Origin: a virus
Taxonomy: Duplodnaviria > Heunggongvirae > Uroviricota > Caudoviricetes
Length of the DNA: 31,427 nucleotides
Reading direction: 5' to 3' (one strand)
IMG/VR virus record: IMGVR_UViG_2667527789_000018
Location: 1-31,427 of that record
The translations under genes were made by a program, and so were the position numbers. The notes beneath the pieces were generated by a model that saw nothing but the letters and a program-made list of their open reading frames with translations, searched no databases and had not been told where the DNA came from. This document shows positions 1-31,427 of this stretch, piece after piece. How positions within the stretch are numbered: position 1 is the stretch's first letter; each line of letters starts with the position of its first letter.

Positions 1-1011
1 TTATAACGTCACTCCGCCTTTTAGTGGATTCAGAGCGACGGCATTTTGCAGATAGTCAGGCGCAAGGTGCGCATAGGCCATCGTCTGCTGAATGCTCGCA
101 TGTCCCAGAATCTGTTGCAGTGCGATTATATTGCCCCCATTCATCATGAAATGGCTTGCGAATGTATGCCGCAGGATGTGGGTTGCCTGATTGGGTGGTA
201 TATCAGGTTTCACTCTGCGTAAAATCCCGCAAAATTTCTCATAATCAACTTTGAATAATTTGGCGCTGGCCTCCTCTTTAACTTTTTTCTCCAGTTCCTC
301 AGAAATCGGCACGGTTCGCTTTTTACCGTTTTTGGTTTTCAGGAAGGTAACCCTGCAATTTGTAATCTGTGCTGGTTTTAGCGTGGCAACTTCCGTCCAT
401 CTTCCTCCAGTGCTCAGACATAAAAGCGCGACAAGTAAGTCATCACCAGCCAAAACATTTAACAGTTTTTCGATTTCTGCTTTTTCCAGGAACGTCATTT
501 CAGGGTTGGCCTCCGCCAGTGGCGGCAGTCCGTGAATTGGGTGTTGCCCGGAAAATTCATCCAATTGAATTAATTTTGTGAACATGCCGGATAATCTGTA
601 CATGTCACGGTTTATCGTTGAGGCACTGATACCATCACGTAGTCGCATGGAACGATAATCCATCAAAGCCCTTTTGCTCATCCTGCTCACTGGTATATCA
701 CCTATGCCGCTGATGGTTTTGAGTAGATGATTAAACTCTTTTGTTCCATGCTCGTGGTTTTGCCCGTGATATTTCCACCAGATGTCCAGCAACTCACTCA
801 AAGTCCGGCGGTCTGCTCGCTGGCCTCCCCATTCTTTCTGACTGGCATTGGCGATTGTGTATCGCTCAAATGCTAGTGCTTCAGCTTTTCTTTCGAATTT
901 CCTGCGGATGCGTTTTCCGTCGCGACCGCGAGGTCTAATGTCCACTTCATAGCGACCATCATCGAGCTTCTTAATTGCCATAAGAAAGCCCTCCGGCGCT
1001 GTATTCACCAT
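1..1011 (-). CDS. int: tyrosine integrase (P2 Int family)
   Basis: 336-aa ORF ending at a TAA whose complement is bases 1-3; C-terminal tyrosine-recombinase-like region (HILRHTFASH...GHASIQQTMAYAHL); located at prophage end beside repressor. An alternative ATG at 981 (MAIKKLDDGRYEV) has a better SD (GGAGGG), so the true start may be 981. Confidence 0.9.
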   Translation of the reverse strand: MVNTAPEGFLMAIKKLDDGRYEVDIRPRGRDGKRIRRKFERKAEALAFERYTIANASQKEWGGQRADRRTLSELLDIWWKYHGQNHEHGTKEFNHLLKTISGIGDIPVSRMSKRALMDYRSMRLRDGISASTINRDMYRLSGMFTKLIQLDEFSGQHPIHGLPPLAEANPEMTFLEKAEIEKLLNVLAGDDLLVALLCLSTGGRWTEVATLKPAQITNCRVTFLKTKNGKKRTVPISEELEKKVKEEASAKLFKVDYEKFCGILRRVKPDIPPNQATHILRHTFASHFMMNGGNIIALQQILGHASIQQTMAYAHLAPDYLQNAVALNPLKGGVTL

Positions 1012-1050: not shown

Positions 1051-1344
1051 TTAGCCAATCCTTTTCGCGGAGTGGTTGGACTCTGTTGACTCTGGCCCAA
1101 TGTGCGCGAGAGCCGGTGCGATTTGTCCTGCGTCCGGCGCGGTTTTATCTGTCATAAGCCATAGAGCATATTTTTGGAATGTGGGATGCATAGTGATTTT
1201 TAGCAAAGCTGTGCCACCGGGTTCAAAGTTTCCTCCTTCATATTTTTTAAGTGTGCTTAGCGGTAACTCTATGATTTCACAGAATTTTGATTGGCTTAGC
1301 CCTTCAGCCTCACGCAAGGCCTTAATCTTTTCGCTTAATTTCAT
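1051..1344 (-). CDS. C: immunity repressor, P2 C-like HTH protein
   Basis: 97-aa ORF with N-terminal HTH-like segment (LSQSKFCEIIELPLSTLKKY); divergent from the early operon, directly upstream of int as in P2. Confidence 0.85.
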   Translation of the reverse strand: MKLSEKIKALREAEGLSQSKFCEIIELPLSTLKKYEGGNFEPGGTALLKITMHPTFQKYALWLMTDKTAPDAGQIAPALAHIGPESTESNHSAKRIG

Positions 1345-2711: not shown

Positions 2712-3013
2712 TGTCCTGTTCTCGTTCAGTTGTATTATTGAATAACGCCTTAAAAATCGCCGTTATGAAAAATGGCGATTTGTCTCTTATTCAACTTGGT
2801 CTTGATAAAGAAAAACGCGAAATAACTGAGTCTGTTATCGCGATTTATCAGAACGAATTAAACCTCCTGTCTGATGTGGTCAATTTACTTGTTAAACGCG
2901 CTGTGTTTCACAAGCAAATCTCCTCCGTGGATGAACTGACGAAATTAACGGCAGAAATCGCCAGCTATTGCGCTGATGAATTTAAAAACCTTAACGACAA
3001 AAGGAACTGGTAA
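2711..3013 (+). CDS. hypothetical early protein (P2 orf81 position)
   Basis: ATG at 2711 overlapping upstream stop; about 100 aa; stop overlaps next start (TAATG). Tracked ORF starts at TTG 2708. Confidence 0.65.
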   Translation: MSCSRSVVLLNNALKIAVMKNGDLSLIQLGLDKEKREITESVIAIYQNELNLLSDVVNLLVKRAVFHKQISSVDELTKLTAEIASYCADEFKNLNDKRNW

Positions 3014-3237
3014 TGCCGGACAACGTAGATTTTATTCAGGAACAACAGGCTGAATTACTGGAGCGCCAGATTAACGCGGCAAGGGTAAAACATTGCGGTG
3101 CTTCTGCGCTGGTTTGCGAAGAGTGTGACGCGCCAATACCTGCTGCCCGTCGTGCGGCTTATCCGTCAGCCACGCGTTGTGTTTCCTGTCAGTCAGTCTT
3201 TGAAGCAAAAAACAAACATTACCGGAGAACGGCATGA
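3013..3237 (+). CDS. TraR/DksA-family C4 zinc-finger protein (P2 orf82 position)
   Basis: 74 aa with CEEC-x17-CVSC four-cysteine motif typical of phage TraR/DksA-like zinc fingers. Confidence 0.75.
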   Translation: MPDNVDFIQEQQAELLERQINAARVKHCGASALVCEECDAPIPAARRAAYPSATRCVSCQSVFEAKNKHYRRTA

Positions 3238-3509
3238 GTATTCGTATTGAAATTGGCGAACGTTATGTCGTTACCAGTGACAGCTTTCAGTTTATTCTCC
3301 ACGAGAAAAAGAGAGCGGAAAGCGGTAAAAACGCCGGTCAGGAATGGCTGGCGGTGGTTGGTTATTACCCGAAATTAAGCCAGCTCGTTTCCGGCCTGAT
3401 GCATCACGATATTCTGACCGGAAGCGCAAAATCTTTTGCCGATTTAAACGCGCAGGTTGAGCAACTCAGCAAGCGTTGTTCAAAGGCTTTTGGCTCACAT
3501 GGCCGTTAA
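3234..3509 (+). CDS. hypothetical early protein (P2 orf83 position)
   Basis: 91-aa ORF; its stop overlaps the start of the replication gene (ATGGCCGTTAA). Confidence 0.6.
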   Translation: MSIRIEIGERYVVTSDSFQFILHEKKRAESGKNAGQEWLAVVGYYPKLSQLVSGLMHHDILTGSAKSFADLNAQVEQLSKRCSKAFGSHGR

Positions 3510-5895: not shown

Positions 5896-7734
5896 ATGAG
5901 CGAGTTCGATGTTTTTTCTATTTCAGTTGATGATTTTAAAAAAAGTGAGTACGCCAGTATATTGTTACCACCAAGAAGCCATTCTTATTTTGAAATGGAA
6001 TCTTATTTTTTTCAGTTGTTGTCATTTTATAAGCAAAAAAAAGATGTGAGTTCTTGGAGGGTTTGCTATTTATTACGTTCGTTATTTAGTTTAAAATTTT
6101 CTAAGTCTGGTGATATTATCGACTTTGAGTCTAAAATCATTCTCTATCCTAAGCGAGGTTATAGACCTTCAGATTACAAGGATAATTATTTAACCATATT
6201 AACTTGTATTAAAGAAAATACTGACAACCCTTATATTATATCTAGGGTGTGTGATGTTTTATGGATAAATAACCGTAAGGATATAGATTCTGCTAATAAA
6301 GCAATAGAGTCATATGCTCTAATGATTAATGATGCTTGTGATACTTTGTTAGAAAAAAAGGAATCAGGTGACATCCATGTTTTTGATGTCGTTGACTGCT
6401 TGGATAGAGGTATTACAATATCGCGCATGCTTATTGGCAGGAAAAAACAACTGCAAGGAGGGATAGTTGACTCGACGTTAAGGCTATATCATATATTAAT
6501 AGATTCTAGTATATTTATCGGTGTTTTAAGAATTTCTGAAATTCTTTATAAGAATAATTTATTGTGCCCCTTACAATTGGCTAAGAATGCAGAAAAGATA
6601 GCTGATGAGCATTGTGGAGCTTCTTATTTTGATGCTGTGAAAAAATTGTTTTATTTTGCGTCTGAATTATATGTTAAAAATGATATGGAAGAGCAAGGAA
6701 GAAGGTGCAAAATGAAAGCGACAGAAATAACATTGGCTCAATTTGAACAGTCTTCATCTCCAACATTGAAGGCTCATTGGCTAAGAGTTGCTCTTGGGGA
6801 ATTTAGAGCGATTGGTGGAATGAGTGAAAGGATTAAAGAGATTAAAGAGGAATTAAATTCTATTCGAGATCAAATCAATGATGAAATGTATTCCTTTGCA
6901 ATACCAATGGATCTTAGTGATGTTATCGCTCAGAAAGAGCATATTTATAATCAATTAAATTTCTCAGAAATAATTAAAAAATTAATCTCTAGATTTAAGG
7001 TTGTAAGTGCCAGTGAGATTATGGAAAGAGCTCGCTCTGATGCTAAGAGATATTTTTTTGTTAATGTGAGTGATACGGTTTTTTATGATGACAGAGGACG
7101 CGTTGTGGCAAGGCAACCACCTTTAGATTCTGCTGGGGATATAAGTCTAGATGATGCCTGTGTAAATTATTTAAGAACTAGTAATATTGAGCATCAGTTT
7201 TATGTTTATGGTGAGTTTGAAGTTGTTAGGCAAAGAGTGTTGTCTAGGTATTCATTAAATGAGAATACATTTGACCCAATCTCACAACAAAGTCTATTTG
7301 TTCCTCCTGGGTATGCGGAAATATTTTCTTTAGGATTTCTTAAGCTTTGGCAGGGGGATTATGTGTCTGCCTGTTATTTGTTGTTGCCGCAGTTGGAGAA
7401 TTCAATTAGATGGATTTTAGAATTAAGAAGAAAAGAAACAACGAAAATAGATGTGTCACTTTTTGAGGAGGCTACTAGTCTATCTCAAATGCTTGCAAAT
7501 TATAAGAGTGAAATGGAAGGTATTTTTGGGAGTGATCATGTATTGACTATGGATTTATTGTTCAATATGAAAGGTGGTGCTGCAATTAGACACACGATGG
7601 CTCATGGCAGGTATACTGTAAATCATTGTTATCAACCAACTTCAGTTTTTGCCTGTGTCTTTATCTTTTATTTAACTTGTTTGCCTTTATTTAGTGTATG
7701 GGAAGATAAAGTTGAACCTTATCTGACTGATTAA
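5896..7734 (+). CDS. AT-rich accessory (cargo) protein of unknown function, 612 aa; candidate anti-phage defence protein
   Basis: ATG 5896 preceded by AGGTGAGGA; about 32% G+C in a 60-nt sample versus about 57% in phage genes; occupies the tin/old position of P2; no P-loop; C-terminal R-x4-H motif (AIRHTMAHGRY). Confidence 0.8.
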   Translation: MSEFDVFSISVDDFKKSEYASILLPPRSHSYFEMESYFFQLLSFYKQKKDVSSWRVCYLLRSLFSLKFSKSGDIIDFESKIILYPKRGYRPSDYKDNYLTILTCIKENTDNPYIISRVCDVLWINNRKDIDSANKAIESYALMINDACDTLLEKKESGDIHVFDVVDCLDRGITISRMLIGRKKQLQGGIVDSTLRLYHILIDSSIFIGVLRISEILYKNNLLCPLQLAKNAEKIADEHCGASYFDAVKKLFYFASELYVKNDMEEQGRRCKMKATEITLAQFEQSSSPTLKAHWLRVALGEFRAIGGMSERIKEIKEELNSIRDQINDEMYSFAIPMDLSDVIAQKEHIYNQLNFSEIIKKLISRFKVVSASEIMERARSDAKRYFFVNVSDTVFYDDRGRVVARQPPLDSAGDISLDDACVNYLRTSNIEHQFYVYGEFEVVRQRVLSRYSLNENTFDPISQQSLFVPPGYAEIFSLGFLKLWQGDYVSACYLLLPQLENSIRWILELRRKETTKIDVSLFEEATSLSQMLANYKSEMEGIFGSDHVLTMDLLFNMKGGAAIRHTMAHGRYTVNHCYQPTSVFACVFIFYLTCLPLFSVWEDKVEPYLTD

Positions 7735-17264: not shown

Positions 17265-17330
17265 TTGTGCCATTCCCGACACCTCATCGTTACATTGCCG
17301 CCGGTATGACCCGGCGGCATCCTTCCCGTT

Positions 17331-17966
17331 ATGAACACTCTCGCAAATATTCAGGAACTCGCGCGCGCACTGCGCAACATGATCCGCACCGGCATTATCG
17401 TCGAAACCGACCTTAACGCCGGTCGCTGCCGTGTGCAGACCGGCGGCATGTGCACCGACTGGCTTCAGTGGCTGACCCATCGCGCCGGACGTTCGCGCAC
17501 ATGGTGGGCACCTTCCGTGGGGGAACAGGTGCTGATTCTGGCCGTGGGCGGTGAACTCGACACGGCGTTCGTTCTGCCGGGGATTTATTCCGGCGATAAC
17601 CCCGCGCCGTCTGCGTCGGCGGATGCCCTGCATATCCGTTTCCCTGACGGGGCGGTGATTGAATATGAACCCGAAACCAGTGCACTCACGGTAAGCGGAA
17701 TTAAAACGGCCAGCGTGACGGCTTCTGATTCTGTTACTGCCACGGTGCCGGTGGTCATGGTGAAAGCGTCAACCCGCATCACCCTGGACACCCCGGAGGT
17801 GGTCTGCACCAACAGACTGATTACCGGCACGCTGGAAGTGCAGAAGGGCGGGACGATGCGCGGCAACATTAAACATACCGGCGGTGAACTCTCATCAAAC
17901 GGTAAGGTACTGCATACCCATAAACACCCCGGCGACAGCGGCGGCACAACCGGGAGTCCTCTATGA
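17331..17966 (+). CDS. V: baseplate central spike protein gpV
   Basis: 211 aa; C-terminal His-rich tip motif (LHTHKHPGDSGG) consistent with the metal-binding spike apex of P2 gpV; first gene of V-W-J-I-H-G operon. Confidence 0.88.
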   Translation: MNTLANIQELARALRNMIRTGIIVETDLNAGRCRVQTGGMCTDWLQWLTHRAGRSRTWWAPSVGEQVLILAVGGELDTAFVLPGIYSGDNPAPSASADALHIRFPDGAVIEYEPETSALTVSGIKTASVTASDSVTATVPVVMVKASTRITLDTPEVVCTNRLITGTLEVQKGGTMRGNIKHTGGELSSNGKVLHTHKHPGDSGGTTGSPL

Positions 17967-19223: not shown

Positions 19224-19746
19224 TTCGCGACTGCTGCCGACCGGCTCATCACCGCTTGAAGTTGCTGCCGCAAAAGCCTGTGCGGAAATTGAAAAAACGC
19301 CGGTCAGGATTCGTGAGCTGTGGAACCCGGACACTTGCCCGGCAAATTTGCTGCCGTGGCTGGCATGGGCGTTTTCGGTCGACAGGTGGGATGAAAAGTG
19401 GCCGGAAGCGACAAAACGCGCCGTTATTCGCGATGCCTATTTCATCCACTGTCATAAAGGCACTATAGGCGCAATCCGGCGTGTGGTGGAGCCGCTCGGC
19501 TATCTCATTAACGTAAAGGAATGGTGGGAGACAAACGACCCGCCCGGCACCTTTCGCCTTGATATCGGTGTGCTGGAAAGCGGCATCACAGAGGCAATGT
19601 ATCAGGAAATGGAACGGCTGATTGCTGATGCCAAACCTGCAAGCCGCCACCTTATTGGCCTGAACATTACCCGGGACATTCCCGGCTACCTGTTCGCCGG
19701 TGGTGTGGCTTACGACGGCGATGTAATTACGGTTTACCCCGGATAA
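19216..19746 (+). CDS. I: baseplate protein gpI
   Basis: 176 aa; GGAGG SD; overlaps J stop. Confidence 0.88.
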   Translation: MSDSRLLPTGSSPLEVAAAKACAEIEKTPVRIRELWNPDTCPANLLPWLAWAFSVDRWDEKWPEATKRAVIRDAYFIHCHKGTIGAIRRVVEPLGYLINVKEWWETNDPPGTFRLDIGVLESGITEAMYQEMERLIADAKPASRHLIGLNITRDIPGYLFAGGVAYDGDVITVYPG

Positions 19747-19756
19747 GTGAGGAATA

Positions 19757-22012
19757 ATGAGCACAAAATTCAAAACCGTTATCACCACTGCCGGTGCAGC
19801 AAAGCTGGCAGCGGCAACCGCACCGGGAGGGCGGAAGGTCAACATTACCACGATGGCCGTCGGGGATGGCGGTGGTAAATTGCCTGTCCCGGATGCCGGA
19901 CAGACCGGGCTTATCCACGAAGTCTGGCGACATGCGCTGAACAAAATCAGTCAGGACAAACGAAACAGTAATTATATTATCGCAGAGCTGGTTATTCCGC
20001 CGGAGGTGGGCGGTTTCTGGATGCGTGAGCTTGGCCTGTACGATGATGCGGGAACGTTAATTGCCGTGGCGAACATGGCCGAAAGTTATAAGCCAGCTCT
20101 TGCCGAAGGTTCAGGGCGTTCGCAGACCTGCCGCATGGTCATCATCGTCAGCAGTGTGGCCTCAGTGGAGCTGACCATTGACACCACAACGGTGATGGCG
20201 ACGCAGGATTACGTTGATGACAAAATTGCAGAGCACGAACAGTCACGACGTCACCCGGACGCCTCGCTGACCGCAAAAGGTTTTACTCAGTTAAGCAGTG
20301 CGACCAACAGCACGTCTGAAATGCTGGCCGCAACGCCAAAAGCCGTTAAGACGGTAATGGATGAAACGAACAAGAAAGCGCCATTAAACAGCCCTGCACT
20401 GACCGGCACGCCAACGACGCCAACTGCGCGACAGGGAACGAATAATACTCAGATCGCAAACACGGCTTTCGTTATGGCCGCGATTGCCGCCCTTGTAGAC
20501 TCGTCGCCTGACGCACTGAATACGCTGAACGAGCTGGCGGCGGCGCTGGGCAATGACCCGAATTTTGCTACCACCATGACTAATGCGCTTGCGGGTAAGC
20601 AACCGAAAGATGCTACCCTGACGGCGCTGGCGGGGCTTGCTACTGCGGCAGACAGGTTTCCGTATTTTACGGGGAATGATGTTGCCAGCCTGGCAACCCT
20701 GACAAAAGTCGGGCGGGATATTCTGGCTAAATCGACCGTTGCCGCCGTTATCGAATATCTCGGTTTGCAGGAAACGGTAAATCAGGCTTCTGGCGCATTG
20801 CAGAAAAATCAGAACGGCGCGGATATTCCTGATAAAGATCGCTTCCTGAGTAACATTAATGTTTACAGCAAAGGCGAGGTGGATAAGAAAAAAGGAATGC
20901 GGCAGTACGTATTTAACGCGCCGTCTAATGCTGTTGGTGGAAAGTGGTATCCAGTTATTTTCCGGCGTTCCACTGGTAGCACTGGCGAACTGGCTTCCAG
21001 AGTGGTTATTACAACCACATCTGCCGGTGGTGATTACGCAATGAATAACTGCGAATTTAATGGAATGGTAATGCCCGGAGGTTGGACTGATCGTGGTTCA
21101 TATGCAGCAGGTTATTTTTCGACATATCAGACTAATGAGCGCGCAATCCATTCCATTGTAACAAGCCTGAAAGAAGATGATGTATGCAGCGTTTTTTACG
21201 TTGAAGGCAGGGCTTTTCCTGTGCGAGTTTTTGCCGAAGAAGGGCTAACGGTTATTGTTCCAACTCAGGATTATACCGTCGGTCAAACAACATATAAGTG
21301 GGGAGCAACTAATCCCGCGACAGAAAGCACGAACGCACAAGCCATTCTGGATTTTAACAATGGGCGAGGGTTTTATTGTTCTCACTCAATATTCGGTATT
21401 AATGCCATTTTTAGCGGAAATCTGGGGATTGGAACGGCTAATGCCCTGGGGGGAAATTCAATAGTTTTAGGAGATAACGATACTGGGTTTAAACAAAATG
21501 GTGATGGGGTGCTGGATGCTTATGCTAATGGTGTGCATGTATTCCGCTTTAGAAATGGCTCAGCAATATCATTAAAGGGTATTCAAGCTGGGGAAAGTAA
21601 GTTATTCACACTTTCAAGTGCAAATACCGCTGCCCATAATGCATCATTTAACTTGTGGGGAAATTCGTCAAGACCAACTGTTGCAGAGCTTGGTGATGAT
21701 TCAGGCTGGCATTTCTATAGTCAGCGAAATACAGATAACTCGGTGACATTTGCTGTAAACGGTCAGATACAACCAAGCAGCTGGGGTAACATTGATTCCA
21801 GATATGTGAAAGATGTTCGGCTTGGCTCACAGCAATATTATGGTGTGAACAACTGGCAAACATGGAACTTCCAGTGCCCTTCAGGTCATGTATTGTCTGG
21901 TATAAATGTTCAGGATACAGGTTCCAACTCCGCCGATAATATTGCGGGTGTTTATTACAGACCCGTTCAAAAGTATATAAATGGCACATGGTATAATGTA
22001 GCGAGCGTTTAA
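19757..22012 (+). CDS. H: tail fibre protein gpH with divergent, lower-GC C-terminal receptor-binding region
   Basis: 751 aa; conserved N-terminal part ([20 protein letters not shown]...), G+C drops from about 63% (near 19800) to 42-48% (21300-21660); followed by the fibre assembly chaperone. Confidence 0.88.
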
Positions 22013-22762: not shown

Positions 22763-23356
22763 ATGTTTACTAAGCGACGATTAAAAAATATTAACTGGGA
22801 GGCAAGTTCAGTGATTCTTGCTATGGTTCTCTTTGTTGGAAATATATTTTATACAAATCATCGTGATGATATAAACATGGAGGCTGAGAGAGACAGTATC
22901 AGAACAATGTTTGCATATGAAATCGCTAATAACCATCGCGCTCTCACTTTTCTTGATAAAACGAGACATATTGGCTTTGACGAAAATTCGGAGCATTTTG
23001 TTGGCGAGCCTTTTGCCATTAATGTCAAATCATTAGGGGGACCTCGCTTACAGATTGCATTAAACCAGACTGATAAAGTGTTTAAATCCTACTTCGGCGA
23101 ATTAAGTAAGCTTGATAAAGAGGATGTTACTCTTCTTATGGACTATTACCATGAGCAAAGCATCCTGCTGGAGCGTGTAAAATCTACGTTACAGAAGATG
23201 AAAAGTGGTAATGATATTAAAGTTGATATTGATGGTTACTTATTAGAAGAACACTTCATGAATGAGCTTAATCTTTCTAATATATTGCTTAAACGCTATA
23301 GCTATTTATTATCACAACACGCTAAAGAACATAAAACAAAAGATTTACATAATTGA
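22763..23356 (+). CDS. AT-rich accessory membrane-anchored protein, 197 aa, in the Z/fun hotspot; candidate superinfection-exclusion or defence protein
   Basis: About 32% G+C in a 60-nt sample; N-terminal hydrophobic helix (SSVILAMVLFVGNIFY) then a charged soluble domain; occupies the G-FI intergenic slot where P2 carries Z/fun. Confidence 0.7.
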   Translation: MFTKRRLKNINWEASSVILAMVLFVGNIFYTNHRDDINMEAERDSIRTMFAYEIANNHRALTFLDKTRHIGFDENSEHFVGEPFAINVKSLGGPRLQIALNQTDKVFKSYFGELSKLDKEDVTLLMDYYHEQSILLERVKSTLQKMKSGNDIKVDIDGYLLEEHFMNELNLSNILLKRYSYLLSQHAKEHKTKDLHN

Positions 23357-24888: not shown

Positions 24889-25407
24889 ATGGCAATGCCG
24901 CGCAAACTCAAGTTAATGAACGTCTTTCTGAACGGCTACAGCTATCAGGGCGTCGCGAAGTCCGTCACGCTACCAAAACTGACCCGTAAGCTCGAAAACT
25001 ATCGCGGTGCGGGGATGAACGGCAGCGCACCGGTAGACCTCGGCCTTGATGACGATGCGCTGTCAATGGAGTGGTCGCTCGGTGGCTTCCCGGATTCGGT
25101 TATCTGGGAGCTTTACGCCGCAACCGGTGTGGATGCCGTACCGATTCGTTTTGCAGGCTCTTACCAGCGCGACGATACCGGCGAAACGGTGGCCGTCGAG
25201 GTGGTCATGCGTGGACGTCAGAAAGAAATCGACACCGGCGAGGGCAAACAGGGAGAAGACACCGAGTCGAAAATCTCCGTGGTCTGCACCTATTTCCGGC
25301 TGACGATGGACGGTAAGGAGCTGGTCGAAATCGACACCATCAACATGATAGAGAAGGTGAACGGCGTCGACCGGCTGGAGCAACACCGTCGCAATATCGG
25401 CCTGTGA
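24889..25407 (+). CDS. FII: tail tube protein gpFII
   Basis: 172 aa; AGGAG SD. Confidence 0.92.
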   Translation: MAMPRKLKLMNVFLNGYSYQGVAKSVTLPKLTRKLENYRGAGMNGSAPVDLGLDDDALSMEWSLGGFPDSVIWELYAATGVDAVPIRFAGSYQRDDTGETVAVEVVMRGRQKEIDTGEGKQGEDTESKISVVCTYFRLTMDGKELVEIDTINMIEKVNGVDRLEQHRRNIGL

Positions 25408-25463
25408 TTTTCATCCGGTCAGCCTGGCTGACCGGTTAACCCCGATTCAGAAGTGAGAAAACC

Positions 25464-25739
25464 ATGAACAAAGAAAACGTCATTACCCTGGACAAGCCGG
25501 TCAAACGTGGTGAGCAGGTTATCGAACAGGTCACGCTGATGAAACCTAATGCCGGGACGCTGCGCGGTGTCAGTCTGGCTGCGGTCGCAAACTCCGAAGT
25601 CGATGCACTGATTAAAGTGCTGCCGCGCATGACCGCACCGATGCTGACCGAGCAGGAAGTCGCCGCGCTGGAACTGCCTGACCTTGTGGCGCTGGCCGGT
25701 AAGGTGGTCGGTTTTTTGTCGCCGAACTCGGTGCAGTGA
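25464..25739 (+). CDS. E: tail assembly chaperone gpE
   Basis: 91 aa; contains slippery T-TTT-TTG heptamer near its 3' end. Confidence 0.85.
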   Translation: MNKENVITLDKPVKRGEQVIEQVTLMKPNAGTLRGVSLAAVANSEVDALIKVLPRMTAPMLTEQEVAALELPDLVALAGKVVGFLSPNSVQ

Positions 25740-25891
25740 CGTTTCCGAAAAATCTCTCGGTCGATGATCTGATGGCGGATGTGGCAGTGATATTTCACTG
25801 GCCGCCATCAGAACTGTATCCCATGAGCCTGACCGAACTCATCACATGGCGCGAAAAGGCGCTCCGGCGAAGCGGAAACACGAATGAGTAA
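25464..25891 (+). CDS. E': gpE+E' fusion made by -1 programmed ribosomal frameshift at T-TTT-TTG (25712-25718)
   Basis: Hand translation of the -1 frame from 25718 is open to TAA at 25889-25891 (...AVTFPKNLSVDDLMADVAVIFHWPPSELYPMSLTELITWREKALRRSGNTNE), giving 142 aa in total and overlapping the T start. Confidence 0.65.
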
Positions 25892-28331
25892 CAATGTAAA
25901 ATTACAGGTATTGCTCAGGGCTGTTGACCAGGCATCCCGCCCGTTTAAATCCATCCGCACAGCGAGCAAGTCGCTGTCGGGGGATATCCGGGAAACACAA
26001 AAATCACTGCGCGAGCTGAACGGTCAGGCATCCCGTATTGAGGGGTTCCGCAAGACCAGTGCACAGCTCGCCGTGACTGGTCAGGAACTGAAAAAAGCCA
26101 GACAGGAAGCCGCAGCACTGGCTGTCCAGTTTAAAAATACTGAACGACCAACAAATGCACAGGCAAAGGCAATGGAAGCCGCGCGTAAAAATGTGTCGGA
26201 GTTACAGGCGAAATATAACAGCCTGAGATTGTCGGTACAGCGCCAGCGTCAGGAACTGAGTCAGGCGGGTATTAATACCCGTAATCTGGCGCATGATGAA
26301 CGAGGGCTGAAAAACCGTATCAGTGAAACCACCGTACAGCTTAACCGGCAGCGTGACGCGCTGGCGCGTGTCAGTGCGCAACAGGCAAAACTTAACGCAG
26401 TAAAACAGCGTTATCAGGCCGGAAAGGAACTGGCCGGAAATATGGCCTCAGTGGGCGCTGTCGGTGTGGGGATTGCTGCTGCGGGAACGATGGTCGGAGT
26501 TAAGCTGCTGATGCCCGGTTATGAGTTTGCGCAGAAAAACTCAGAATTGCAGGCCGTGCTAGGAGTGGCAAAAGACTCCGCCGAAATGACCGCACTCCGC
26601 AAGCAGGCGCGCCAGCTCGGCGACAATACCGCAGCCTCGGCAGATGATGCAGCCGGTGCACAGATTATCATTGCGAAAGCGGGTGGAGATGCTGCGGCTA
26701 TTCAGGCGGCAACGCCGGTCACGCTGAATATGGCACTGGCGAATCAGCGGTCGATGGAAGAAAACGCGCAACTGTTGCTGGGGACTAAGGCATCCTTTCA
26801 ACTGTCAAATGATGATGTCAGCCATGTGGGCGACGTGTTGTCGGCAACGATGAATAAGTCGGCGGCTGATTTTCAGGGACTCAGTGATACACTGACTTAC
26901 CTCGGGCCGGTTGCGAGGACTGCAGGTGTAAGTCTTGAGCAGGCAGCAGCCATGACAGGTGTGCTGCATGACAATAACATCAGGGGGTCAATGGCGGGGA
27001 CGGGTAGCAGTGCCGTTGTCACCCGATTACAGGCACCGACTGGAAAAGCATGGGATGCACTCAAAGAGCTTGGCGTTAAAACCTCGGACAAAAAGGGAAA
27101 TATGCGTCCGTTGTTCACCATTCTGAAAGAGATTCAGGCCAGCTTTGATAAACACAAGCTGGGAACGTCTCAGAAGGGGGAATACCTTAAAACCATTTTT
27201 GGTGAGGAAGCCCTGAAATCAGCGAACGTTTTACTGGCAGCGGCAGCAAGCGGAAAACTGGATAAGCTGACCGCCACGCTGAAAGCCTCGGACGGTAAAA
27301 CGGAAGAGCTGGTTAAAATCATGCAGGATAACCTCGGCGGTGACTTTAAGGAGTTTCAGTCCGCTTATGAGGCGGTGGGGACTGACCTGTTTGACCAGCA
27401 GGAAGGCGCGCTGCGTAAGCTCACGCAGACGGCCACAAAGTATGTGTTAAAACTCGACGGCTGGATCCAGAAAAACAAATCACTGGCGTCAACCATCGGC
27501 ATCATTGCCGGTGGCGCGCTGGCGCTGACTGGCATCATCGGTGCAATTGGTCTTGTAGCCTGGCCGGTTATCACCGGCATCAATGCCATCATTGCGGCAG
27601 CAGGCGCAATGGGGGCAGTCTTCACGACGGTTGGTAGTGCTGTTATGACCGCCATCGGGGCTATTAGCTGGCCGGTTGTGGCCGTGGTGGCCGCAATTGT
27701 CGCCGGGGCGTTGCTTATCCGTAAATACTGGGAGCCTGTCAGCGCATTCTTTGGCGGTGTGGTTGAAGGGCTGAAAGTGGCATTTGCGCCGGTGGGAGAA
27801 CTGTTCACGCCACTGAAGCCGGTGTTTGACTGGCTGGGTGAAAAGTTACAGGCCGCGTGGCAGTGGTTTAAAAACCTGATTGCCCCGGTCAAAGCCACCC
27901 AGGACACCCTGAACCGTTGCCGTGACACGGGCGTCATGTTCGGGCAGGCACTGGCTGACGCGCTGATGCTGCCGCTTAATGCGTTCAACAAACTGCGCAG
28001 CGGTATTGACTGGGTACTGGAAAAACTCGGTGTTATCAACAAAGAGTCAGACACACTTGACCAGACCGCCGCAAGGACTCATGCCGCCACGTATGGCACC
28101 GGCGGTTATATTCCGGCGACCAGCTCTTATGCAGGCTATCAGGCTTATCAGCCGGTCACGGCACCGGCTGGTCGCTCTTATGTGGACCAGAGTAAAAACG
28201 AATATCACATCAACCTGACGGGCGGTACTGCGCCGGGGACACAGCTTGACCGCCAGTTACAGGATGCGCTCGAAAAATACGAGCGGGATAAACGTGCGCG
28301 CGCCCGTGCCAGCATGATGCATGACGGTTAA
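25884..28331 (+). CDS. T: tail tape measure protein gpT
   Basis: 815 aa; coiled-coil N-terminal half, Gly/Ala-rich hydrophobic central segment. Confidence 0.92.
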   Translation: MSNNVKLQVLLRAVDQASRPFKSIRTASKSLSGDIRETQKSLRELNGQASRIEGFRKTSAQLAVTGQELKKARQEAAALAVQFKNTERPTNAQAKAMEAARKNVSELQAKYNSLRLSVQRQRQELSQAGINTRNLAHDERGLKNRISETTVQLNRQRDALARVSAQQAKLNAVKQRYQAGKELAGNMASVGAVGVGIAAAGTMVGVKLLMPGYEFAQKNSELQAVLGVAKDSAEMTALRKQARQLGDNTAASADDAAGAQIIIAKAGGDAAAIQAATPVTLNMALANQRSMEENAQLLLGTKASFQLSNDDVSHVGDVLSATMNKSAADFQGLSDTLTYLGPVARTAGVSLEQAAAMTGVLHDNNIRGSMAGTGSSAVVTRLQAPTGKAWDALKELGVKTSDKKGNMRPLFTILKEIQASFDKHKLGTSQKGEYLKTIFGEEALKSANVLLAAAASGKLDKLTATLKASDGKTEELVKIMQDNLGGDFKEFQSAYEAVGTDLFDQQEGALRKLTQTATKYVLKLDGWIQKNKSLASTIGIIAGGALALTGIIGAIGLVAWPVITGINAIIAAAGAMGAVFTTVGSAVMTAIGAISWPVVAVVAAIVAGALLIRKYWEPVSAFFGGVVEGLKVAFAPVGELFTPLKPVFDWLGEKLQAAWQWFKNLIAPVKATQDTLNRCRDTGVMFGQALADALMLPLNAFNKLRSGIDWVLEKLGVINKESDTLDQTAARTHAATYGTGGYIPATSSYAGYQAYQPVTAPAGRSYVDQSKNEYHINLTGGTAPGTQLDRQLQDALEKYERDKRARARASMMHDG

Positions 28332-30351: not shown

Positions 30352-30416
30352 GTGGTTGATATAAATCCATTTATATCATCAGGTTAGGTGCTTTTTTGTG
30401 ACACCATCCCTGTCTT

Positions 30417-30443
30417 CCCCCACATGATGTGGGGGTTTTTTTT
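30417..30443 (+). terminator. strong rho-independent terminator (possibly the end of a 3'UTR-derived sRNA of the upstream host gene)
   Basis: CCCCCAC-ATGAT-GTGGGGG hairpin followed by an 8-nt T run, 80 bp upstream of fieF. Confidence 0.75.
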
Positions 30444-30524
30444 ATCCTCAATTTGCCTGCTGCTTAATGCATTGCAGATGATTTGCTTCCGTTATACTAG
30501 CGTCAGTTGATAGCGGGAGTATTT

Positions 30525-31427
30525 ATGAATCAATCTTATGGACGGCTGGTCAGTCGGGCGGCGATTGCTGCGACGGCGATGGCTTCGCTGCTATTGCTGA
30601 TTAAAATTTTTGCATGGTGGTATACCGGGTCGGTGAGTATTCTCGCCGCGCTGGTGGATTCGCTGGTGGATATCGGCGCGTCGTTGACGAATTTATTGGT
30701 GGTGCGATATTCCCTGCAACCTGCCGACGATAATCACTCGTTTGGTCACGGTAAAGCTGAGTCCCTCGCGGCGCTGGCGCAAAGTATGTTTATCTCCGGT
30801 TCGGCACTATTCCTGTTTTTGACGGGTATTCAACATCTGATATCTCCAACACCGATGACAGATCCAGGCGTCGGGGTTATCGTGACAATTGTGGCGCTAA
30901 TTTGTACGATTATCCTTGTCTCGTTTCAGCGTTGGGTGGTGCGGCGGACGCAAAGCCAGGCGGTGCGGGCTGATATGCTACATTACCAGTCTGATGTTAT
31001 GATGAACGGCGCAATTCTGCTGGCGCTGGGGTTGTCCTGGTACGGCTGGCATCGCGCCGATGCTCTGTTTGCATTGGGAATCGGCATCTATATTTTATAT
31101 AGCGCGTTACGCATGGGATATGAGGCGGTACAGTCATTACTGGATCGCGCATTGCCTGATGAGGAACGGCAAGAAATTATTGATATCGTGACTTCCTGGC
31201 CGGGTGTTAGCGGCGCTCACGATCTTCGCACGCGGCAGTCAGGGCCGACCCGCTTTATTCAGATTCATTTGGAAATGGAAGACTCTCTGCCTTTGGTTCA
31301 GGCACATATGGTGGCGGATCAGGTAGAGCAGGCTATTTTACGGCGTTTTCCGGGATCGGATGTAATTATCCATCAGGACCCCTGTTCCGTCGTACCCAGG
31401 GAGGGTAAACGGTCTATGCTTTCATAA
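30525..31427 (+). CDS. fieF: cation diffusion facilitator ferrous-iron/zinc efflux transporter FieF (YiiP)
   Basis: 300 aa from ATG 30525 ([25 protein letters not shown]...), recognised as enterobacterial FieF; CDF-type [10 protein letters not shown] motif; the tracked ORF begins at upstream TTG 30507. Confidence 0.92.

Follow-up and report, generated by a model that had tools for sequence, protein, structure and literature searches.

How are the two overlapping reading frames between the tail tube and tape measure genes of a P2-like phage turned into protein? The initial annotation of the DNA analysed here, a stretch of 31,427 nucleotides (hereafter the window), had proposed that a programmed −1 ribosomal frameshift near the end of gene E produces an E+E' tail chaperone. 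The window as a whole is a P2-like (Peduovirus) prophage of E. coli. Phage P2 (AF063097) is collinear with it over gene B to orf91, cos, Q to S, V to H and FI to ogr, at 93–97% nucleotide identity; the immunity region and the cargo hotspots of the prophage differ from those of P2, but the E/E' locus does not. A 551-nt segment around the frameshift site matched 74 phage records at 95–99% identity and was found in 1583 of 5426 complete E. coli genomes (~29%).

The E/E' locus and its counterpart in phage P2

Gene E (25464–25739, on the plus strand like all features of the locus) runs from ATG 25464 to TGA 25737–25739 and encodes a tail assembly chaperone of 91 aa, the zero-frame product and the homologue of P2 gpE (19430–19705 in AF063097). 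Its upstream neighbour is FII (24889–25407), the tail tube protein gene according to both Pfam (PF04985 Phage_tube, E = 2.3e-60) and the P2 annotation, and its downstream neighbour is T (25884–28331), identified by the same two sources as the tape measure protein gene (PF10145 PhageMin_Tail, E = 2.3e-44; gpT in P2). The order FII–E/E'–T is followed by U and D (the FETUD operon) and is collinear with P2 17433–24342.

A slippery heptamer, T TTT TTG, is located at 25712–25718 in X XXY YYZ phase. The zero-frame codons GGT (25710–25712), TTT (25713–25715) and TTG (25716–25718) are E codons 83–85, such that codon 85 of 91 closes the heptamer and six E codons remain. From the G at 25718 the −1 frame reads VAELGAVTFPKNLSVDDLMADVAVIFHWPPSELYPMSLTELITWREKALRRSGNTNE over 57 codons to TAA 25889–25891, just inside T, whose ATG at 25884 gives an 8-nt overlap with the end of E'. 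This E' extension (25718–25891) is predicted to be translated only as the C-terminal part of E+E', and the fusion built from the sequence, join(25464..25718, 25718..25891), has 142 aa (85 + 57). The position and phase of the heptamer in the initial annotation were therefore exact, as was its −1 opening of 57 codons when checked by translation, and the total that it had likened to P2 E+E' is indeed the 142 aa given for P2 (PMC3091744). The −1 frame is open from 25703 to 25888 and is closed upstream by TAA 25700–25702, which leaves only 37 nt in which the two frames could be joined. A −2/+1 shift was considered and rejected, that frame being closed after 16 codons.

The two parts of the fusion match different protein families. 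Pfam family PF10109 (Phage_TAC_7, 'tail assembly chaperone proteins E, or 41 or 14') matches residues 7–85 at 48.7 bits (cut-off 25) and ends exactly at the shift codon, and PF06528 (Phage_P2_GpE) matches fusion residues 104–139, inside the −1 extension, at 76.3 bits (cut-off 23; E = 1.2e-21). PHROG tail families match both halves. A PDB sequence search with the fusion returned no homologue at E ≤ 1.

Over 25464–25891, 9 of 428 nucleotides differ from P2 (419/428 identical, 98%), only one of them after the heptamer (25768). Comparison with P2 gpE+E' built by the same join, the alignment that the initial annotation had suggested as a check, gave 140 of 142 identical residues; both substitutions (K11N and N29S relative to P2) lie in the E part and the E' part has none. 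Prophage and phage thus have in common the heptamer T TTT TTG at E codons 83–85, products of 91 and 142 aa and the neighbours FII and T. AF063097 annotates gpE+E' in two pieces at 19430–19857 ('shares amino terminus with gpE; -1 frameshift; essential tail protein'). The 'site of -1 translational frameshift' is marked in this record at 19685, equivalent to window position 25719, the first base past the heptamer. In P2, translation from a single start gives E (91 aa) and, through a −1 frameshift at TTTTTTG, E+E' (142 aa) (PMC3091744). The alignment, the P2 record and this paper together identify the feature, as had been proposed, as the published P2 E/E+E' programmed −1 frameshift in a close P2 relative: it is real, correctly placed and correctly interpreted, and it is already known.

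Conservation of the heptamer and of the −1 frame

A tblastn search with the fusion matched 421 phage records, 402 of which cover at least 80% of it in two pieces corresponding to two frames. Hosts of these phages include Escherichia, Yersinia, Salmonella, Klebsiella, Burkholderia, Ralstonia, Pseudomonas, Vibrio and Mannheimia. For closer comparison we used 19 diverse relatives from 14 host genera, with E identities ranging from 75% down to 31%. All 19 have E' in the −1 frame and an in-phase X XXY YYZ heptamer within the overlap: T TTT TTG in 15, T TTT TTC in two Aeromonas phages, G GGA AAG in one Mannheimia phage and A AAT TTT in one Citrobacter phage. When the sequences were aligned on the heptamer, its seven columns were the most conserved (17–19 of 20), with flanking columns mostly at 8–15 of 20. 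Elsewhere in these E genes TTT accounts for 28% of Phe codons and TTG for 10% of Leu codons, and T is the last base in 17% of all codons; 'NNT TTT TTG' would be expected for the same amino acids at a frequency of ~0.5% and was observed in 16 of 20 sequences. These comparisons indicate that the heptamer is maintained against codon bias.

Closer relatives were represented by 80 IMG/VR loci comprising 64 distinct DNA sequences. Heptamer and 142-aa fusion are intact in all 80. Among the 64 distinct sequences, 37 of the 40 variable sites before the shift occupy the third codon position in frame 0, and of the 23 past the E stop, 14 occupy that position in the −1 frame. The change of codon periodicity from frame 0 to −1 at the site shows translation of the −1 frame, with purifying selection acting on it.

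Slippage mechanism and rival explanations

It is highly likely from these comparisons that programmed −1 tandem tRNA slippage on T TTT TTG makes E+E', which would form a chaperone pair with E. Most ribosomes would read E to its TGA and release the 91-aa chaperone. In a minority, tRNA-Phe on UUU 25713–25715 (P site) and tRNA-Leu on UUG 25716–25718 (A site) would both re-pair one base back, onto U UUU UU, after which GUC would be read from 25718, followed by the rest of the 57 codons in the −1 frame to TAA 25889–25891. The resulting 142-aa E+E' would carry the junction ...KVVGFL|VAELGAV..., with VVGFLVAELGAVTFPK as the tryptic junction peptide expected from tandem slippage. We found no sequence evidence opposing a frameshift mechanism. 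PMC4066793 outlines how slippage at X XXY YYZ sites is generally modelled.

The N-terminal chaperone domain (PF10109) would be common to both proteins and the E' domain (PF06528) present in the fusion only. By analogy with lambda G/GT, the shared E domain may coat the tape measure protein T, and the rare E' domain may recruit the tail tube protein FII so that tube polymerisation starts; T and FII are thus the presumed partners of the two domains in P2-like phages, and as in lambda neither E nor E+E' would stay in the virion. The frameshift would set the ratio of E to E+E'. About 1 in 10 E copies are reported to become E+E' in P2; the P2 fusion was reportedly verified with reporter polypeptides in 2002, at an efficiency of ~10%, and E' is said to be essential. 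Such recoding to fix the ratio of two assembly proteins is textbook material, and its confirmation here adds no new biology. It does touch on the question of what sets efficiency at a T TTT TTG site lacking a downstream structure.

The same 142-aa length could also arise if RNA polymerase added one U at the T6 run, because a one-base insertion gives the same frame; the product would then have Phe instead of Leu at residue 85. The homopolymeric run of six Ts would lend itself to such transcriptional slippage, and a terminator scan flagged a weak hairpin and T-run pattern at 25691–25712. However, the T6 run is shorter than those known to give efficient slippage by E. coli RNA polymerase. At the homologous place the Mannheimia and Citrobacter phages have G GGA AAG and A AAT TTT, which contain no long homopolymer but are canonical tandem-slippage heptamers. 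Moreover, zero-frame phasing is strict in 21 of 21 sequences, which is relevant to tRNA re-pairing but not to polymerase slippage, and the G at heptamer position 7 is kept in 17 of 20. The hairpin pattern is itself weak, having four G·U pairs, and matches to the scan are barely enriched in the window (12 versus 7.0 ± 2.9 in shuffles). We rejected 25691–25712 as a terminator and judged this weak, G·U-rich stem to be a chance occurrence, near shuffle expectation. The homopolymer-free canonical replacements and the strict zero-frame phasing in all relatives thus favour ribosomal over transcriptional slippage, which we regard as very improbable. At the protein level, VVGFLVAE... (Leu) would correspond to a ribosomal tandem slip and VVGFFVAE... 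(Phe) to transcriptional slippage, and the junction peptide VVGFFVAELGAVTFPK would reflect either a slip in the P site alone, the A site being empty, or slippage during transcription.

Alternatively, E' might be an independent small gene of 51 aa that starts at GTG 25736, making a frameshift unnecessary. This GTG is in the −1 frame, six codons past the shift site, and both PGAP and several phage records do list two genes here ('phage tail assembly protein' and 'GpE family phage tail protein'). However, the Shine-Dalgarno (SD) pairing of GTG 25736 with the 16S 3' end is negligible (−2.6 kcal/mol), relatives show no conserved start codon at that position, and E+E' appears in the P2 record as the product of a frameshift. 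In Klebsiella phage 3LV2017 (first start at +42), Ralstonia phage RSY1 and Mannheimia phage 1127AP1 the first start of the −1 frame lies past the beginning of the conserved DDLMADIAxIFHW motif, and in Shewanella phage M16-3 and Salmonella phage SEN4 it is the Met within that motif, so initiation could not yield the whole E' domain in these five relatives. Nor can independent initiation explain an in-phase heptamer kept at the nucleotide level against codon bias, or its swaps to other canonical heptamers. A separate E' gene is therefore likewise very improbable.

None of the elements of the site stands out when taken separately. The window contains 12 copies of TTTTTTG as opposed to 9.6 ± 2.9 in shuffles, which is not a significant over-representation, and an open −1 frame of 57 codons has p ~0.025 at the stop frequency of 0.0625 found in −1 frames of long ORFs here. 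The case for a frameshift thus rests on context and comparison. At the sequence level the locus is far beyond chance in its position between tube and tape measure genes, in having Pfam families on both sides of the shift and in its conservation down to 31% protein identity. That a T-rich heptamer and an open −1 frame simply coincide without a biological role, as these individual frequencies might allow, is practically negligible given the −1-frame Pfam domain (E = 1.2e-21), conservation in 400+ phages and 1583 E. coli genomes, the codon-periodicity switch at the site and the persistence of the heptamer against codon bias.

As a control, we scanned all six frames of the window for heptamers combined with long −1 ORFs. 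The other combinations were shadow-ORF artefacts over real genes; among real genes, only E/E' and orf82/orf83 fit. In the latter pair an in-phase A AAA AAC (3207–3213) precedes the stop of the orf82 homologue (3013–3237) by seven codons, orf83 (3234–3509) is in the −1 frame, and P2 is identical. Because a GGAG-ATG belonging to orf83 itself is present in an ATGA overlap, this heptamer is probably incidental.

Sequences around the heptamer and other recoding systems

Predicted folds of 25719–25800 and 25690–25770 were no better than those of shuffled sequences (z = −0.92 and −1.36, respectively) and so gave no indication of a downstream stimulatory structure, and Rfam had no match anywhere in the window. 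The folds at the site agree with the published absence of downstream hairpins in P2, which extends to its Burkholderia relatives (PMC3091744). In an E. coli reporter series, U_UU.U_UU.G fell outside the high-efficiency motifs, and 'heterogeneous' A-site codons of the UUG type shifted less well (Sharma et al. 2014).

Upstream of the heptamer, the sequence TAAGGTGGT (25700–25708, plus strand) resembles a Shine-Dalgarno sequence and is a candidate stimulator or modulator of the shift. It ends 3 nt upstream of the heptamer (7 nt for its AAGG core), and the TAA that it contains is the final stop before the −1 frame opens. Eight of its nine positions match the perfect SD sequence UAAGGAGGU, and its predicted pairing with the 16S 3' end, at −8.9 kcal/mol, is the strongest of any E-gene window. 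Across 20 relatives, which are related and not independent sequences, mean anti-SD complementarity over the span from −150 to +67 peaks in the 10-nt window from −14 to −5 (−6.5 kcal/mol; 14 of the 20 reach −5 or lower). Against a null of synonymous codons that kept the amino acids, pairing was −8.0 observed versus −5.9 kcal/mol, and 12 of the 20 fell in the lowest quartile. The region 25695–25720 is invariant among the 64 distinct close sequences.

It is possible, although we consider it rather unlikely, that this conserved SD-like element pairs with 16S rRNA in elongating ribosomes and sets frameshift efficiency, such that the P2-type signal would not be a 'bare heptamer'. If true, such pairing would explain how a useful level of E+E' is obtained, without a downstream structure, from a heptamer outside the group that is intrinsically efficient in E. 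coli. A caveat is that conserved K/E-V residues encode much of the signal. In addition, the spacing of TAAGGTGGT is below the known 10–14 nt optimum for −1 stimulation. To our knowledge no SD-like element has been described at the P2 frameshift site, so the element near the P2-type heptamer is possibly the one new detail at this locus; it is a lead and not a finding.

E. coli dnaX (A AAA AAG) likewise combines a tandem-slippage heptamer with an internal SD-like sequence upstream. In dnaX the SD-like element lies 10 nt upstream and is accompanied by a strong downstream hairpin, whereas at E/E' only 3 nt separate the element from the heptamer and the folds show no significant structure downstream. 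The dnaX shift also truncates its protein, whereas the E/E' shift extends it.

A parallel in organisation is lambda gpG/gpGT, where two overlapping ORFs between the major tail (tube) and tape measure genes are also joined by a programmed frameshift. This lambda tail chaperone frameshift has reportedly been treated in work from 1993, 2004, 2013 and 2014. The G GGA AAG of the Mannheimia P2 relative is also known as the lambda heptamer. As here, no obligatory downstream structure is known for lambda. The systems differ in that lambda uses another heptamer than P2, the P2 tail is contractile and binding partners have been shown for lambda only; the efficiency of ~10% reported for P2 is also higher than the ~1:30 of lambda. 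The lambda G/GT class is described in PMC5009743 and PMC3091744. What matters for its function is the ratio of the two products, about 1:30 in lambda; there the tape measure is the partner of the short product and the tube protein that of the extension in the long product, and neither product is present in virions (PMC5009743). When the P2-like fusion was searched against Pfam (hmmscan, E ≤ 0.01), we detected no homology to lambda gpG/gpT, only PF10109 and PF06528 being matched. The relation to lambda is thus an analogy of organisation without detectable homology, and the initial annotation had chosen the right word in calling the two systems analogous.

Annotation of the locus and its prophage setting

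The main value of the present result lies in annotation, since ~29% of complete E. coli genomes carry the segment. E. coli RefSeq genomes and several phage records split E and E' ('phage tail assembly protein' followed by 'GpE family phage tail protein' or 'hypothetical protein') and omit the 142-aa fusion; the join is carried by only a few curated records, those of P2, EtG, KS5 and KS14. Because RefSeq/PGAP and many records split the two, a fusion that is essential according to the P2 record is missing from most protein sets.

The spacer between FII and E contains a perfect 9-bp stem-loop at 25414–25434 (CCGGUCAGC-CUG-GCUGACCGG; z = −2.81 versus shuffles) without a U-tract. A Mannheimia relative has a terminator annotated at the equivalent position. 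This stem-loop may be an intercistronic element of processing, stability or attenuation that parts the abundant sheath and tube genes from the low-copy chaperone and tape measure genes.

Elsewhere in the prophage, the ends and the immunity region (1–1755 and 30379–31427) are unlike P2. The integrase gene (1–1011, minus strand) aligned to P2 int in patches only, at 70–80% nucleotide identity; the repressor (1051–1344, minus strand) is an HTH_3 protein different from that of P2, and cox is at 1466–1753. At the other end, 30507–31427 encodes a cation-efflux protein (Cation_efflux and ZT_dimer), apparently host fieF. With a fieF-like gene at its end, the window thus seems to be an integrated prophage trimmed at gene boundaries.

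Two genes of low GC content occupy positions at which P2 has other genes. Between orf91 and cos, the tin/old region of P2 is replaced by a gene at 5896–7734 (plus strand; GC 33% compared with 52% for the window), whose 612-aa product matches PADLOC candidate defence family PDC-S39 (E = 1.4e-73) and Pfam DUF7380; it is typical cargo of the P2 defence hotspot. The fun(Z) position between G and FI, which is the second P2 cargo hotspot, is occupied by an ORF of 197 aa (22763–23356, plus strand; GC 34%) that belongs to phrog_3829 and had no Pfam or PADLOC match. In addition, P2 orf30 is missing between S and V (17266–17331), and the stretch from the C-terminal part of tail fibre gene H to the G junction (20781–21968) is replaced or divergent, with no match to P2 or 72% identity. 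A mosaic of this kind is usual for host range.
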